From a virus (taxonomy: Duplodnaviria > Heunggongvirae > Uroviricota > Caudoviricetes): 4,954 nt of DNA. The notes under the pieces were generated by a model. It saw only the letters and a program-made list of their open reading frames with translations, ran no database searches and was not told the origin of the DNA. Location of the stretch: IMG/VR virus record IMGVR_UViG_2579779052_000005; one strand, written 5' to 3'. Positions 1 to 4,954 of this stretch are shown one piece after another (position 1 is the stretch's first letter; every line of letters begins with the position of its first letter). A program made the position numbers and the translations under genes.

Positions 1-294
1 GTTGCGCACGTATTCGGTGAACGCACTATGGCGACGCTGGGGCGTCTTATGAGCCTGCTGTCACCCTTTGACGTGGTGATATGGATGACGGATGGCTGGC
101 CGCTGTATGAATCCCGCCTGAAGGGAAAGCTGCACGTAATCAGCAAGCGATATACGCAGCGAATTGAGCGGCATAACCTGAATCTGAGGCAGCACCTGGC
201 ACGGCTGGGACGGAAGTCGCTGTCGTTCTCAAAATCGGTGGAGCTGCATGACAAAGTCATCGGGCATTATCTGAACATAAAACACTATCAATAA
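1..294 (+). CDS. insB: IS1 transposase InsB reading frame, C-terminal part (5'-truncated by window edge)
   Basis: ORF track 28..294 is the Met-initiated tail; the frame is open from base 1 and matches InsB as I recall it. Stop TAA at 292-294. Confidence 0.93.
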
Positions 295-309
295 GTTGGA
301 GTCATTACC
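287..309. repeat. IS1 right terminal inverted repeat (IRR)
   Basis: atcaataagttggagtcattacc; its reverse complement ggtaatgactccaacttattgat matches the IRL at 4472-4494 at 18 of 23 positions, including the shared core ccaactta-tgat. Confidence 0.9.
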
Positions 310-521
310 ACCAATCTGTTATATTATATATAGCTGCGTGGAATCATAATATCATATATTTTGACTGGCATGTTTACCAAATTTAAGTTGCATCTCAATG
401 GTTTCTTCAGCGTAAACAGAGTTTTTATACAAACTGACACTCTGGGTATCATAGTGTAGTTTTTACGATTGTAAATATCCTGTATGCAGGAACTCATCCT
501 TTTGGATGATATCGCATACAA

Positions 522-1481
522 TTAATTTACCATCAGTCTTAGAGCCAGTTCGTCCGGATAGGGATCGAAGTAATTCTGTGTAAGCAAGTAATCATTAGGA
601 TACTCACCCAGATAATGCTTCAGCAGAGTCAACGGCGCAAGAAGAGGTAATGTGCCAGAACGATAGTTAAGTATAACCTCGCTCAACTCTTTACGCTGGC
701 GTGTACTTAAGTAGTTACTAAAATACCCCTGTATATGCATCAGCACATTCGTGTGATTTTTACGTGATGCAGGTTTTCTGAGAATCGCCATCAGCTTATC
801 ACGATACACCTCAAAGTATGATTCAAGATCCGCCCACTCGTGTATTGCAGCCACAAATGGTCCCATATCTTTATAGCCTGTCTGACTATGCGCCAACAAC
901 TGAAGCTTATAACGACTATGAAAAGCCAATAACTCTCTTCTTGATAATTTCTCCTTGTAAAGGTGATTGAGCTCATGCAAAGCAAAAACTCTTTCAACAA
1001 AATTCTCACGAAGCACTGGATCATGTAATCGCCCATCCTCTTCAACCGGTAGCCAGGAAAACTTTTCCATCAAAGTGCTCGTAAATAGTCCCACTCCATC
1101 TTTACGACCTCGATTACCATTTTCATCATAGACACGCACGCGCTCCATGCCACAGCTGGGAGATTTAGCACAAACCACAAACCCCGATACATCCTTTAAT
1201 TTGTCCATATAAGAACGACTAAACTCTGTCATTCTCTCTGTCACATCCTCATTCTGGTCGTGGCTGAAACACATCCGTATATTTCCTTGCGTCGAGCGCA
1301 CAAGACGTAGAGCAGGACGCGGAACTGGCAGCCCTATAGCCATTTCCGGACATACTGGTCTGAATGTTACCCATTCCACTAATTTGTCCATTAAAAAGTC
1401 AGCTCTTTTGTGACCACCATCAAAACGAACAGCAGAACCGGCCAAACAACCGCTGATTCCAATCACAGGTTTTTTTATCAT
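522..1481 (-). CDS. DUF523 (TudS-like 2-thiouracil desulfurase domain) / DUF1722 (YbgA-like) fusion protein, 319 aa
   Basis: The N-terminus (IGISGCLAGSAVRFDGGHKR ... VCPEMAIGLPVP ... VVCAKSPSCG) resembles DUF523/TudS with Cys at 12, 44 and 104. The C-terminal half (HSQTGY...HTNVLMHIQGYF...YRSGTLPLLAPLTLLKHYL...YLLTQNYFDPYPDELALR) resembles DUF1722/YbgA. GGAGG lies just upstream of the ATG at 1481, though the spacing is short. Recognition is from memory, not a search. Confidence 0.8.
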   Translation of the reverse strand: MIKKPVIGISGCLAGSAVRFDGGHKRADFLMDKLVEWVTFRPVCPEMAIGLPVPRPALRLVRSTQGNIRMCFSHDQNEDVTERMTEFSRSYMDKLKDVSGFVVCAKSPSCGMERVRVYDENGNRGRKDGVGLFTSTLMEKFSWLPVEEDGRLHDPVLRENFVERVFALHELNHLYKEKLSRRELLAFHSRYKLQLLAHSQTGYKDMGPFVAAIHEWADLESYFEVYRDKLMAILRKPASRKNHTNVLMHIQGYFSNYLSTRQRKELSEVILNYRSGTLPLLAPLTLLKHYLGEYPNDYLLTQNYFDPYPDELALRLMVN

Positions 1482-1673
1482 ATCCTCCCCCTTGACTAAT
1501 TCATTAACACATAAACTGTGTAGTGCACGGAATAAATTGCCTTTCTGGCGTCATCACTGACAATTTTTCTGTTATGGACTATTCCTAATATAGTATGAAA
1601 GTTCTTTAAGTGATCGGTCGTAATCATCTATCTTTCATACTTACTCTCAACTATCAAAAGTACAGGATTTATT

Positions 1674-2198
1674 ATGAAGTTATGGCCTGTGTTGACTGGC
1701 ATTGCGCTCTCTTTCACTCTTATAGCATGTAAGGCCCCGACACCACCTAAAGGTGTGCAGCCGATTACAAATTTTGACGCCAACCGCTACCTCGGAAAAT
1801 GGTATGAAATAGCTCGCCTCGAGAACCGGTTCGAACGTGGTCTGGAACAGGTCAGCGCTACTTATGGAAAACGGAACGACGGAGGGATTCGTGTACTTAA
1901 CCGTGGATACGATCCAACGAAAAATAAATGGAGCGAGAGCGAAGGTAAAGCATACTTTACTGGAGATACTAAAACTGCAGCGTTGAAGGTTTCGTTTTTT
2001 GGCCCCTTCTATGGTGGCTATAATGTAATCAAACTGGATGATGAGTATAAGTATGCTCTTGTCAGTGGTCCGAACAGAGAATACCTATGGATTCTGGCAA
2101 GGACCTCAACTATTCCAGATAAAGTAAAAGCAGACTATGTGCGAACCGCTCAAAAGTTGGGATTCAATGTCAATGAATTATTATGGGTTAAACAATAA
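1674..2198 (+). CDS. blc: Blc-family outer-membrane lipoprotein (bacterial lipocalin), 174 aa
   Basis: The translation aligns along its whole length with E. coli Blc as I recall it (shared blocks NFDA.RYLG.WYEIAR...RFERGLE.V.ATY...SEGKAYFTG...AALKVSFFGPFYGGYNVI.LD.EY..ALV.GP.R.YLWIL.RT), at roughly 60% identity. Lipoprotein signal peptide with lipobox LIAC (Cys19) and Lys at +2, which predicts outer-membrane sorting. AGGA lies 7 nt upstream of the ATG. Confidence 0.9.
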   Translation: MKLWPVLTGIALSFTLIACKAPTPPKGVQPITNFDANRYLGKWYEIARLENRFERGLEQVSATYGKRNDGGIRVLNRGYDPTKNKWSESEGKAYFTGDTKTAALKVSFFGPFYGGYNVIKLDDEYKYALVSGPNREYLWILARTSTIPDKVKADYVRTAQKLGFNVNELLWVKQ

Positions 2199-2226
2199 AA
2201 TCCCTACCCGAAATGATACTTATTAG

Positions 2227-2253
2227 AAAAAAACCAGCCTTTGGGGAGGCTGG
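2227..2253 (-). terminator. Rho-independent terminator acting on minus-strand transcripts (between convergent quuD and blc-like genes)
   Basis: Perfect 7-bp inverted repeat ccagcct (2234-2240) / aggctgg (2247-2253) with a 6-nt loop. On the minus strand the hairpin is followed directly by a run of 7 U (complement of aaaaaaa at 2227-2233). On the plus strand it is followed by cuaaauc, so it is a weak terminator at best for blc. Confidence 0.6.
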
Positions 2254-2353
2254 CTAAATCAGGAAACAAGCTGTTATATGATAATAACTACGTTGCGATT
2301 CCAACATTTAAAATGTTAGACTAATGACAATCAGACAGCAACTTTTCCTTTAA

Positions 2354-2731
2354 TTATTTCGAACAATCAGCATCCATCTCCAATCGGAGATCCAACACCA
2401 TCAGCATACCCTCCACTACGCCCTCAGCTTTCTGGAGCATCCTGCCAACCCAACAATCAGATCGCCCATGCTTACGTGCAAGCGCCATAAAAGTCATGCC
2501 GCCGACATAATAGTCCACCAATAAATCATGCAAATCGCTGTTGTTCTTTTTCAGACGGGCCATGCACCCGCAAATGATCATCGCGTCATCGTCACAACAT
2601 TGTGGGCGAGATTTTACTTTTGAAGGAATTAATCCCTTAAAACCGGCGGCAATGGACGACCAGGTCACATCTTCATGATTATTAGCCGCCCACGCTCCCC
2701 AACGCTCAAGAACCATCTGAATATCACGCAT
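2354..2731 (-). CDS. quuD: Lambdoid prophage late-gene antiterminator Q (QuuD-like), 125 aa
   Basis: Translation [88 protein letters not shown]... matches DLP12 QuuD as I recall it. The ORF track's N-terminal extension MWSKL comes from a TTG; the likely true start is the ATG at 2731-2729, with GGAG 8 nt upstream. Confidence 0.88.
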
Positions 2732-2816
2732 CAACTTACTCCACAAAAATCAGACCAGAACGCCAATTACAAGCAAAAATCAACAAAACAGTATTAGTTG
2801 ATTGTTATCTCTGACT

Positions 2817-2954
2817 TCATACTCCTGCTCCTGTCAGGGTTTTGGCGTAATTCTTCAGTATTCGGTAATCGGTCAAAACAGAACCGGGAAAATGATATAA
2901 GTGCAGGCGCACCCAGCGGCGGCGAAGACGTTCTGCCATATAAGACTCAAACAT
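2817..2954 (-). CDS. ylcG: YlcG-like small prophage protein, 45 aa (alternative internal start at 2939 gives 40 aa)
   Basis: Not in the ORF track (too short). Hand translation of the minus strand gives [45 protein letters not shown]. The ATG at 2954-2952 overlaps the rusA stop (TGATG). Size and position between rusA and quuD match ylcG in DLP12; the sequence itself is not verified from memory. Confidence 0.5.
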   Translation of the reverse strand: MFESYMAERLRRRWVRLHLYHFPGSVLTDYRILKNYAKTLTGAGV

Positions 2955-3316
2955 CATTCATCTCCCAGTTCAGTGATGGTCAGCTCCAGCTTCCCACCTT
3001 TGGTAACGGGCATCTTCACAACACGGTAATCAACGACCTGAACATCATCCAGCCAGAAACCTGCTTTGGTAAGTGCGTCAAAAGCAGCTTTTTGCAGATT
3101 ATCCAGGTCACGGCGACGGCGATCCGGCATGTGACACTCAATGCGGATTTTCACAGGAATAGCCAGGCCGATATCCAGCATTGCGTTTTTAATGATTCGG
3201 GCGACGTTATCGCGGTATGCCTGCCCCTCTGCGCTGATGTGCGTGCGCCCGCGATTATGGCGGTAATAGCGATTATTGCTCGGAGGCCAGGGTAATGTGA
3301 TGCTGTAGGTATTCAC
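2954..3316 (-). CDS. rusA: Holliday-junction resolvase RusA (crossover junction endodeoxyribonuclease), 120 aa
   Basis: Translation [108 protein letters not shown]... is near-identical to E. coli RusA as I recall it. Asp70, Asp72 and Asp91 are present. GTG start at 3316 overlaps the ybcO stop (GTGA). Confidence 0.93.
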
Positions 3317-3603
3317 GCCTTAATAACCCCCTCTTTCAGCCAGATAACCTGTGTTCTCGCCATATCTTCCAGCGCGCATTCTTTTGCATACTCAGCATCG
3401 ACAAAATGTGTGCGGCGGTCGATTTCGTCGTGACAGGCAGAACATGCAATGGTGGCAATCAGGTCTGGCGGTTTGATACCGGTACCGCACAATCCAGCCA
3501 GCCGGATATGTGCCAGTACAGACGTCTCAGAATTGCCATTACATACGCCAGGGATTCTTACCTGGCATTCCCGACCACGCGCTGCTTTTCTCAAATCAGC
3601 CAT
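3313..3603 (-). CDS. ybcO: YbcO (DUF1364 family, putative Cys-rich nuclease), 96 aa
   Basis: Translation [96 protein letters not shown] matches DLP12 YbcO. The ORF track starts 13 codons upstream, but the ATG at 3603-3601 is preceded by AGGAGG at a 5-nt spacing (minus strand gcaAGGAGGaatcATG). Confidence 0.88.
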
Positions 3604-3766
3604 GATTCCTCCTTGCTGCCAGTCGCAACCATTTTTTATCAACCAGGCTGGCGGTATACCCTAGCAGTGTTGGTATTTCGGATGGCTTCAGCTCAGGCTT
3701 ACGCTTACGACGATTTGGTACTCTGTAGATGTGTCCGTTCATGACCCGAATAAGCGGTGTAGTCAT
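3596..3766 (-). CDS. ninE: NinE-family small phage protein, 56 aa
   Basis: Not in the ORF track. Hand translation gives [56 protein letters not shown]. The ATG overlaps the ybcN stop (TAATG) and the 3' end overlaps the ybcO start by 8 nt (ATGGCTGA). Position between ybcN and ybcO fits nin-region synteny. Confidence 0.75.
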   Translation of the reverse strand: MTTPLIRVMNGHIYRVPNRRKRKPELKPSEIPTLLGYTASLVDKKWLRLAARRNHG

Positions 3767-4221
3767 TACGCCTCCTGCTTGTCGCGCAGCAGCTGGAACT
3801 CGCAGCTCTGCGGAATAGTCAGGCGGCAGCCAATATTCATCGCCCAGGCTTCAACCTTACACAGGAAGACATACATCTCTCCGGTATCAAGATCGGAGGT
3901 ATGGCGTAACGACTGGATCGTAGTGACTTCGCCGGTTACGACATCAACCAGGTCCTTGGTTTCATAACCGAGGTATGTGTGTTTGAGAGCATCTTTTACC
4001 CATGCTGCAGTAGCGAACGATTCCCCCCTGCTGATGAGGTACTCACTGATTTCGCTGTACCACATGTGGCTGAGTGCATTCTGGGAAAGACTGCGTCTTT
4101 CGCGCCACGGTTTAAGCACCATGCGAAAGCATTTGCCGTCCTCCAGATAAGGCTGGATCTGCTGACCGATAGCGGTGAAGTTACCGCGATGTAATTTGAT
4201 GCCGTCTTGTGGGAGGTTCAC
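3766..4221 (-). CDS. ybcN: YbcN (DLP12-type prophage DNA base-flipping protein), 151 aa
   Basis: Translation [66 protein letters not shown]... matches E. coli YbcN as I recall it. GTG start at 4221 with GGAGGT 5 nt upstream. Confidence 0.9.
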
Positions 4222-4319
4222 GCTTCACCTCCGCAGAGGTCAAACGCTGGATGCAAAAAATCGCAGGTGCATTTCTGCATCTGTGAAGGGAGAAGAGAGT
4301 TTAGATTGTATGTGCGCAT
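4218..4319 (-). CDS. ylcH: YlcH-like small prophage protein, 33 aa
   Basis: Not in the ORF track. Hand translation gives [33 protein letters not shown]. Its stop overlaps the ybcN GTG start (GTGA). Size and position upstream of ybcN fit DLP12 ylcH; the sequence is not verified from memory. Confidence 0.45.
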
Positions 4320-4374
4320 AAACGTCCCCGTTTAGCGCAGAAGTCACCGGAGTTGTTCAGGCTCCGATGACATG

Positions 4375-4403
4375 ATTATGGCGAGTTGATTATGGAAAAT
4401 CAA
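4375..4403 (-). promoter_or_regulatory. Candidate sigma70 promoter for the ylcH-ybcN-ninE-ybcO-rusA-ylcG-quuD gene string
   Basis: On the minus strand: TTGATT (4403-4398), a 17-nt spacer, then CATAAT (4380-4375), about 55 nt upstream of the ylcH ATG. Pattern match only. Confidence 0.25.
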
Positions 4404-4471
4404 ATTAGTACAAATCACCACTGAAGCGTAAATTTTCCAGTTTGTTACGGTGAAAATTGATTTGCTGTGCG

Positions 4472-4494
4472 GGTGATGCTGCCAACTTACTGAT
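4472..4494. repeat. IS1 left terminal inverted repeat (IRL)
   Basis: ggtgatgctgccaacttactgat; imperfect inverted repeat of the IRR at 287-309. Confidence 0.9.
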
Positions 4495-4526
4495 TTAGTG
4501 TATGATGGTGTTTTTGAGGTGCTCCA

Positions 4527-4802
4527 GTGGCTTCTGTTTCTATCAGCTGTCCCTCCTGTTCAGCTACTGACGGGGTGGTGCGTAACGGCAAAAGCACTGC
4601 CGGACATCAGCGCTATCTCTGCTCTCACTGCCGTAAAACATGGCAACTGCAGTTCACTTACACCGCTTCTCAACCCGGTACGCACCAGAAAATCATTGAT
4701 ATGGCCATGAATGGCGTTGGATGCCGGGCAACCGCCCGCATTATGGGCGTTGGCCTCAACACGATTTTCCGCCATTTAAAAAACTCAGGCCGCAGTCGGT
4801 AA
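4527..4802 (+). CDS. insA: IS1 InsA (transposition inhibitor / DNA-binding protein), 91 aa
   Basis: Translation [91 protein letters not shown] matches InsA with its zinc-finger-like CxxC...CxxC N-terminus. Confidence 0.95.
4778..4784 (+). other. IS1 programmed -1 ribosomal frameshift site (A6C slippery heptamer)
   Basis: aaaaaac at 4778-4784, lying in the insA zero frame as tta-aaa-aac, 16 nt before the insA stop. Confidence 0.8.
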
Positions 4803-4954
4803 CCTCGCGCATACAACCGGGCAGTGATGTGATTGTCTGCGCTGAAATGGACGAACAGTGGGGCTACGTCGGTGCTAAATCACGTCAGCGCTGGCTGTTT
4901 TACGCGTATGACAGGATACGGAAGACGGTTGTTGCGCACGTTTTCGGTGAACGC
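4778..4954 (+). CDS. insB: IS1 insB' reading frame, 5' part (-1 frame relative to insA; 3'-truncated by window edge)
   Basis: The -1 frame from the slippery site reads [60 protein letters not shown], matching InsB and running into the same InsB segment seen at the start of the window. It has no start codon of its own and is expressed as an InsAB' fusion. Confidence 0.85.

Follow-up and report, generated by a model that had tools for sequence, protein, structure and literature searches.

A nin-Q-moron segment of a decayed lambda-like prophage lies between two direct IS1 copies that were very probably acquired separately

The stretch of DNA analysed here (hereafter the window; 4,954 nt) begins and ends within IS1. 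At its left end lies the 3' part of one copy (IS1 positions 460-768; window positions 1-309, + strand), which is identical over 460-768 to the IS1 copies of the Escherichia coli CUWW06 chromosome (L001) and is, by that comparison, purely the common ('C-type') allele. This part holds the C-terminal 97 codons of insB' (1-294, +), with a Pfam DDE_Tnp_IS1 match at 1-291 (E = 4e-54), and the right inverted repeat (IRR; 287-309), ending ...aagttggagtcattacc. At the right end, the 5' part of a second copy (IS1 positions 1-483; 4472-4954, +) opens with the left inverted repeat (IRL; 4472-4494), starting ggtgatgctgccaacttactgat, and comprises insA (4527-4802, +; Pfam Zn_ribbon_InsA and HTH_Tnp_IS1) and the start of insB'. 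The A6C motif AAAAAAC can be read at 4778-4784. In IS1 this motif serves a -1 frameshift that joins insA and insB'; the two frames meet at it here, and the RefSeq annotation of the element records a 'programmed frameshift'. The ends of the window overlap, 1-24 matching 4931-4954 with one mismatch (A versus T at IS1 position 471), just as a previous reading made from the letters alone (the sequence-only reading) had described, and the lengths of the two parts sum accordingly (309 + 483 = 792 = 768 + 24).

The IS1 parts enclose a cargo of 4,162 bp (310-4471). A RudS-type tRNA 4-thiouridine desulfidase, in which TudS is fused to DUF1722, is encoded at 522-1481 (-; Pfam 2-thiour_desulf and DUF1722). 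The gene is a phage moron gene annotated as 'YbgA family', and its product shares 93% identity with RudS_vir of phage 1H12, a tested protein (PMC11417400), with Cys12, Cys44 and Cys110 kept. A Blc-like lipocalin with a lipoprotein-type N-terminus (1674-2198, +; Pfam Lipocalin_2, E = 7e-43, and RefSeq annotation) is encoded convergently with the gene for a QuuD-like late-gene antiterminator Q (2354-2731, -; Pfam Phage_antitermQ, E = 2e-51, and annotation). Some 100 nt downstream of Q, a consensus scan picks out a terminator-like hairpin followed by a T-run (2232-2255, -), whose position makes it a candidate tR'-type terminator; an Rfam scan of the window gave no family above threshold. On the other side of Q follow ylcG (2817-2957, -; RefSeq annotation, PF26818), the Holliday-junction resolvase gene rusA (2954-3316, -; Pfam RusA and annotation), ybcO (DUF1364; 3313-3603, -; Pfam YbcO, E = 4e-41), ninE (3596-3766, -; annotation, with a Pfam NinE match just under the family cut-off) and the NinB-like ybcN (3766-4221, -; annotation, with a weak Pfam NinB match). 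Pfam and annotation thus confirm the four genes that the sequence-only reading had named between the IS1 parts (blc-like, TudS/DUF1722, rusA and quuD) and add ylcG, ybcO, ninE and ybcN.

The order ybcN-ninE-ybcO-rusA-ylcG-Q is the lambdoid nin-Q string, which lies between the replication genes on its upstream side and the lysis genes on its downstream side. The same cargo gene order is present in two intact prophages (L003 and L004) and in phage 1H12, and the free phage IdasGreatGrand is colinear with the cargo at 97.3%. What lies between the IS1 parts is therefore native to the phage: the nin-Q-moron region of a lambda-like prophage.

On the CUWW06 chromosome the window is colinear in one piece and identical over 1-4815, and 768-bp direct IS1 copies at 7542-8309 and 12472-13239 (both +) flank the cargo exactly. 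The NCTC sequence UGBN01000001 (L006) is likewise colinear with the window and has the segment between two full-length direct IS1 copies; altogether, the segment has an IS1 copy on either side in three long-read chromosomes, and three 768-bp IS1 copies were mapped in CUWW06 and a further genome, L002. IS1 is an element of 768 bp whose terminal inverted repeats, of some 23 bp, are imperfect, and the copies in CUWW06 have this full length. The flanking pair differs only at IS1 position 127, its inverted repeats are intact and both transposase genes are annotated as intact. Since long-read E. coli chromosomes hold the whole window colinearly between two IS1 copies, the window is not a small circle. 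The suggestions that two distinct IS1 copies in direct orientation bracket the segment, and that the window is not a trivially circularised contig, are both upheld. We read the window as a probable contig-sized piece of an E. coli chromosome, taken from a decayed lambdoid prophage that is integrated at thrW/proA and spanning its nin-Q-moron region.

The left IS1 is a simple insertion with a 9-bp duplication. The right-hand copy of its target-site duplication, ACCAATCTG, occupies 310-318, and the same sequence stands directly left of the element in CUWW06 and L002. In the IS1-free relative L003, the empty site has ACCAATCTG once. The insertion site is intergenic, between an AraC-type HTH gene and rudS. 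Two further genomes (L013 and L009) have the left IS1 end without the right IS1, and both run on into an intact replication region.

Among sister strains, the orthologous left IS1 shows 0, 1 or 8 internal differences, a variation that offers a small, clean example of sequence exchange between IS1 copies.

The right IS1 sits at a deletion junction. The last bases of the cargo (...tttgctgtgcg; 4460-4471) form the left breakpoint of a prophage deletion and abut the element; in the intact prophage L004 the sequence at this point continues ataaaactt..., and the kil-side flank is reached 6,266 bp further on. The missing 6,266 bp are the immunity and replication region of the prophage, and the other end of the right IS1 abuts kil. 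A target-site duplication is absent, as expected for a deletion junction. In a sister strain a nested deletion of 5,604 bp shares the kil-side junction; 14EC033 keeps 662 bp more at the breakpoint. Nested adjacent deletions by intramolecular transposition of IS1 would account for this arrangement, as might IS1-by-IS1 recombination. Neither process leaves a duplication, and the end products alone cannot separate adjacent deletion from recombination between two former IS1 copies. Where IS1 or Tn9 has made a deletion by intramolecular transposition, no direct repeats flank the element afterwards (PMC9330008 section 5.2.1). Independent origins of the two IS1 copies are part of an overall explanation that we regard as highly probable.

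The right IS1 of the window is unlike the copy at this site in the long-read genomes. Twelve clustered differences separate it from the same copy in CUWW06, the last of which (4942) is the mismatch seen between the window ends. These 12 SNPs form a block (4816-4942, +; IS1 positions 345-471) that matches a divergent allele, X, located at about 701.6-702.3 kb of NZ_CP182139.1, some 430 kb from this locus in CUWW06. The right IS1 is thus a hybrid of the common allele over positions 1-344 and the divergent allele over 345-483, and the two alleles are identical over an 82-nt stretch, a possible switch region. Gene conversion between IS1 copies, and a short-read assembly path that switched alleles within the 82-nt stretch, are about equally probable origins. 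The exact 483-nt right IS1 part is found in no complete genome (best 99.6%), so that none of the reference genomes is that of the source strain. From the one mismatched base, the sequence-only reading had deduced two IS1 alleles. The copies are indeed distinct, but the difference at position 471 is one of 12 SNPs in a block that derives from a third allele and is possibly an assembly chimera. As a practical point, an SNP within a multi-copy IS element and close to the end of a contig may be an allele chimera.

The window stops inside each IS1 because this lineage has the element in at least about 40 copies. There is only a loose explanation for its two ends falling within 24 nt of one IS1 position. 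An assembler hotspot at IS1 positions 458-460 was considered and rejected: 343 index blocks record the corresponding 97-aa truncated InsB product, and contig ends account for nine of the ten places shown, all at position 458, but neighbouring break positions gave 660 and 1,632 blocks. It is very common in public assemblies for a contig to break off within this part of IS1.

Taken together, these observations are most probably those of an ordinary IS-driven erosion of an E. coli lambda-like prophage between two separately acquired IS1 copies, with a unit that has been neither moved nor amplified; we hold this reading with high, if not complete, confidence. On this reading the segment did not arrive as a composite transposon, and it bears no sign of movement, excision or amplification.

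It is very unlikely that the segment was tandemly amplified or recurrently deleted in the source strain by homologous recombination between the IS1 copies. Direct repeats of 768 bp, with one or no difference in the long-read genomes, are what such events would use, and near-identical repeats of this length are adequate RecA substrates. However, the predicted single-IS1 product, in which the HTH flank is joined to the kil flank, is present in none of 5,426 complete genomes, and both genomes with the IS1-kil junction keep one copy of the cargo. The description of the segment as an amplifiable or deletable unit survives as a generic potential of any two direct repeats, but not as something for which there is evidence of occurrence here. 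We consider it highly improbable that the rudS-lipocalin-Q-nin segment of the source strain is an excised circle or a tandem amplification formed by IS1-by-IS1 recombination, a reading with which the assembly-graph signature (cargo, one IS1 and a short overlap) is compatible. Were it correct, the hybrid right IS1 would be a genuine recombination or gene-conversion product, and the locus would show that IS1 can, in nature, mobilise or amplify a phage module for tRNA demodification (RudS).

The sequence-only reading had also suggested that the segment is potentially mobile as a Tn9-like unit. We think it exceedingly improbable that an IS1-cargo-IS1 element of about 5.7 kb has transposed, or is actively transposing, through its outer IS1 ends. 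The window alone shows partial copies, and it is in CUWW06 that two complete, full-length direct IS1 copies with intact outer ends and inverted repeats, and with transposase genes annotated as intact, give the proposal its appeal; moreover, this is a locus where IS1 composites do arise. In NCTC9080 (H3), which serves as a positive control, IS1A-corA-IS1A lies in the lipocalin gene with an 8-bp target-site duplication, GTTTTTTG, around the whole unit. The pair described here has no such duplication around it: the outer flanks, where the earlier reading had suggested looking for one, read accaatctg (left) and cagaagtct (right) and do not match, and the left IS1 has a 9-bp duplication of its own while the right has none. 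Within the cargo, and in the outer flank on either side, the DNA is colinear with the ancestral prophage, and intermediates with the left IS1 only exist. We found neither foreign cargo nor two or more genomic contexts. A search for the IS1-cargo junctions in other genomes, likewise suggested by the earlier reading, returned neither in any other context. Among the 5,426 complete genomes the cargo-IS1 junction is present in one and the IS1-kil junction in two, always at this locus and never on a plasmid. Exact-pattern scans for both IS1-cargo junctions gave no match in metagenome contigs and none in GTDB genome contigs. In essence, this is the outcome that the sequence-only reading had itself named as counting against a mobile unit.

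Candidates for mobilisation or for a second such pair were set aside. The sole 'plasmid' record with the cargo holds a whole lambdoid prophage and has no IS1 junction. NCTC9080, taken as a second genome with two IS1 copies around the cargo, has a different insertion, IS1A-corA-IS1A inside the lipocalin gene. In H5, the one genome inspected of H5-H19, a lone IS1 separates essD from the HTH gene. Separately, H20, H21 and H34 show the same two-IS1 search pattern as NCTC9080, the latter alone having been inspected in detail.

Extremely improbable, too, is a 4,930-bp circle of one IS1 and the cargo (whether a small replicon, a translocatable unit or the excised product of recombination) in which the end mismatch would be an error of reading or assembly: the window length equals cargo, one IS1 and a 24-nt overlap, as an assembler gives for a loop on a collapsed repeat, but a plain chromosomal arrangement gives the same assembly-graph loop, the terminal overlap is not the exact one of a circular element, its mismatch is part of the 12-SNP allele block and not a lone error, the cargo has no replication gene, and three long-read chromosomes put the segment between two IS1 copies.

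Erosion of the prophage by separately acquired IS1 copies thus remains our preferred reading, and it makes the locus a textbook case of IS1 dismantling a prophage through a simple insertion and nested adjacent deletions, of little wider importance. Complete genomes in which the same structure is annotated are already on deposit, and the biology is already known. The practical lesson is that, where a sequence has both its ends in one IS element, with a near-identical overlap, target-site duplications and native context should be checked before a composite transposon or a circle is called.

Like Tn9 (IS1-cat-IS1) and other IS1 composites, the locus has two complete direct IS1 copies flanking a few kb; unlike Tn9, it has no target duplication around the unit, its cargo is in native context, its IS1 copies were in all likelihood separately acquired and the unit is never seen elsewhere. 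The contrast is provided by IS1A-corA-IS1A of NCTC9080, a true IS1 composite with an 8-bp target-site duplication, which another strain carries in this prophage region. The closer likeness is to IS1 adjacent deletions, as in the gal region and with Tn9 (PMC9330008 section 5.2.1): the kil junction is fixed, the loss is variable and there is no direct repeat. Against that class nothing here is distinctive, the end products suggesting the mechanism. With phage 1H12 and the 'Lambda_ev' phages the locus shares the order Q, lipocalin, RudS, HTH gene and holin; unlike in those phages, the module resides in a dead prophage, and IS1 cuts it off from the lysis genes. The string ybcN-ninE-ybcO-rusA-ylcG-Q within an IS-eroded prophage also recalls the defective lambdoid prophage DLP12 of E. 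coli K-12, which has this gene string and is likewise eroded by IS elements. Unlike DLP12, the prophage examined here occupies the thrW/proA site, carries a lipocalin-rudS moron downstream of Q and has IS1 as its eroding element.

The window is composed of two incomplete IS1 elements in direct orientation, with 4,162 bp of non-IS DNA (the cargo) filling 310-4471. Positions 1-309 correspond to IS1 from position 460 through the right inverted repeat (the left IS1), and 4472-4954 to positions 1-483 of a second copy, left inverted repeat included (the right IS1). Given that 309 + 483 equals 768 + 24, the terminal 24 nt at both ends represent the same IS1 stretch, differing by a single mismatch (A vs T) at IS1 position 471. 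Pfam recognized the transposase parts and every cargo gene. Coordinates, end comparison and domain content thus agree with the sequence-only reading of two direct IS1 parts with near-identical ends.

Megablast of the window against 5,426 complete E. coli genomes placed it, colinear and in a single piece, on one chromosome, that of strain CUWW06 (NZ_CP182139.1; locus L001), which is identical base for base over 1-4815, all 12 differences being clustered in 4816-4942. The NCTC long-read assembly UGBN01000001 (L006) is arranged likewise. On each of the two, a separate, complete 768-bp IS1 copy stands on either side of the segment, both copies in direct orientation (L001 7542-8309 and 12472-13239). 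Hence the window is not a small circle, and the proposal that two real IS1 copies bracket it, rather than a circularized contig being joined upon itself, is borne out on the chromosome. The host element is a lambdoid prophage remnant adjoining tRNA-Thr/proA, with ykgL/ykgM at the opposite boundary. A third, inverted IS1 (L001 5707-6474) lies 1 kb further left and, together with the left IS1, encloses only an AraC-type HTH gene (L001 5707-8309). This copy lacks a target-site duplication and joins the prophage straight to ykgL, which indicates that the late/lysis region and anything beyond it were also deleted.

That the window ends within IS1 is consistent with a contig interrupted at a multi-copy repeat. 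Truncated InsB products matching contigs ended in this part of IS1 were abundant in public assemblies for three nearby end positions (343, 660 and 1,632 index blocks); among those displayed, most sit at contig ends beside unrelated genes. A special break point at IS1 position 460 was considered and dropped, neighboring end positions being on record as well.

The cargo represents a standard nin-Q-moron region, as found in a family of lambdoid phages. On the minus strand the gene order is ybcN, ninE, ybcO, rusA, ylcG and Q, followed by a convergent lipocalin gene and then a TudS-DUF1722 gene. The cargo is colinear with that of the intact, IS1-free prophage L003; it is likewise colinear, at 100% identity, with the intact prophages L004 and L010 and with contig L013, and at 97.3% with the free phage IdasGreatGrand. 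Phage 1H12 shares the same order. Outside window 310 these prophages and phages continue directly into an AraC-type HTH gene and holin/lysozyme genes, and outside 4471 into replication and immunity genes. The TudS-DUF1722 and convergent lipocalin genes constitute a moron that separates Q from the lysis genes, the slot in which Stx phages place their toxin genes. A GC-rich hairpin with a trailing T-run (2232-2255, minus strand), recognized by consensus scan only, lies ~100 nt beyond the stop codon of Q, where it would suit a candidate tR'-type terminator read through by Q-modified polymerase. By its domains and its similarity to RudS_vir, the TudS-DUF1722 fusion (522-1481, minus strand; annotated 'YbgA family') is a RudS-type tRNA 4-thiouridine desulfidase; it shares 93% identity with the phage 1H12 protein RudS_vir and retains Cys12, Cys44 and Cys110. 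Expression of RudS_vir in E. coli lowers tRNA s4U (PMC11417400).

The two IS1 copies have different histories. The left IS1 carries ACCAATCTG on both sides, and this 9-mer occurs once at the matching site in L003; the copy therefore came in as a simple insertion that duplicated its own target site. Its junction with the cargo was found at 100% identity in two genomes and at lower identity in ~10 more, always in this prophage. In a further observation, the prophages of genome matches H107-H116 (strains a7, JX21CE35, PSS-04, MB1 and others) and H38-H40, only 93-98% identical over the junction region, carry, at precisely this position ahead of ACCAATCTG, the end of an IS1 or a 34-nt remnant of one. 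This recurrence reflects either an ancient insertion passed down in the phage family or a hotspot for insertion in the AT-rich spacer.

The right IS1 has no duplication. Its left inverted repeat is flanked by ...tttgctgtgcg and its right by cagaagtct..., adjoining kil/gam/bet/exo; in L004 these flank points are 6,266 bp apart. According to the gene table, the missing DNA comprises small ORFs beside ybcN, the P and O replication genes, ydaS/ydaT-like genes, an S24 repressor and two further ORFs. Strain 14EC033 (L002) shares the identical IS1/kil junction and keeps 662 bp more on the left-repeat side, corresponding to a 5,604-bp deletion. Adjacent deletions by intramolecular transposition of IS1 leave no direct repeat (PMC9330008 section 5.2.1), and nested events of this kind would account for a constant kil end, a varying opposite end and the missing direct repeat. 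An identical product would result if two previous IS1 copies had recombined, and so the deletion mechanism is one that we infer only. The left IS1 is also reached by contigs L013 and L009, which terminate 63 and 51 nt into it; at the other side both run past window 4471 into an intact replication region. These genomes have the left IS1 and lack both the right IS1 and the deletion, which shows that the two copies were acquired separately.

The one-base difference between the window ends belongs to a larger pattern. A divergent allele, X (protein WP_264366568.1), is present in CUWW06 ~430 kb away; it differs from the common IS1 allele at positions 127 and 262 and at 34 sites in block 345-661. 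The window's left part (460-768) is purely of common type. Its right part has common bases at 127 and 262 and X bases at all 12 sites between 345 and 471, making the end mismatch the last SNP of a hybrid; it stops at 483, four bases short of the next diagnostic site. The switch lies within the 82-nt stretch 263-344, identical between the alleles. No exact hybrid was found in complete genomes (best match 99.6%), and all three long-read genomes carry the common type at the right copy. Two explanations are about equally likely: an assembly path that switched alleles within a collapsed repeat of at least ~40 copies, and real gene conversion between IS1 copies. The latter is made plausible by the left IS1 orthologs, which share site and duplication (L001 7542-8309, L002 7542-8309, L006 13913-14680) and depart internally from the common type by 0 differences in 14EC033, 1 in CUWW06 and 8 in the NCTC strain, the last including the IS1A-type bases 298A, 301T and 304C. 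This variation suggests patchy gene conversion in an IS1-rich lineage, one with at least ~39-40 IS1 matches per chromosome.

Although bracketing by two IS1 copies holds, the suggestion that they form a Tn9-like unit that is mobile or amplified finds no evidence and several counter-indications. The only target-site duplication belongs to the left IS1, and the outer flanks of the pair form none. The cargo/right-IS1 junction occurs in one of the 5,426 complete genomes; the IS1/kil junction occurs in two, the same two as the exact left junction, with the cargo still in place in both. The predicted IS1-by-IS1 deletion product was absent from the complete genomes searched. Neither IS1-cargo junction was found on plasmids, the sole plasmid-labelled record with the cargo holding an entire prophage, and exact-pattern scans of metagenome and GTDB contigs found neither. 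The junctions are confined to this prophage locus, which is a case of ordinary IS1-driven prophage decay, and its structure can already be found, with annotation, in public complete genomes.

A chance find in the same prophage region serves as a positive control. In NCTC9080 (NZ_LR134295.1), a 3,242-bp block (L034 7693-10934) consisting of IS1A(-), corA, ysgD, a partial ORF and IS1A(+) interrupts the lipocalin gene at a target equivalent to window 1994-2001, bounded by the 8-bp direct repeat GTTTTTTG. The block has the appearance of a true IS1 composite transposon that picked up the corA region of the chromosome. Strains YZB902, HE302 and 2EC1 show the same megablast match pattern. Unlike the window's pair, the IS1A-corA-IS1A block carries a duplication around the whole unit, the signature of IS1 composite transposition.
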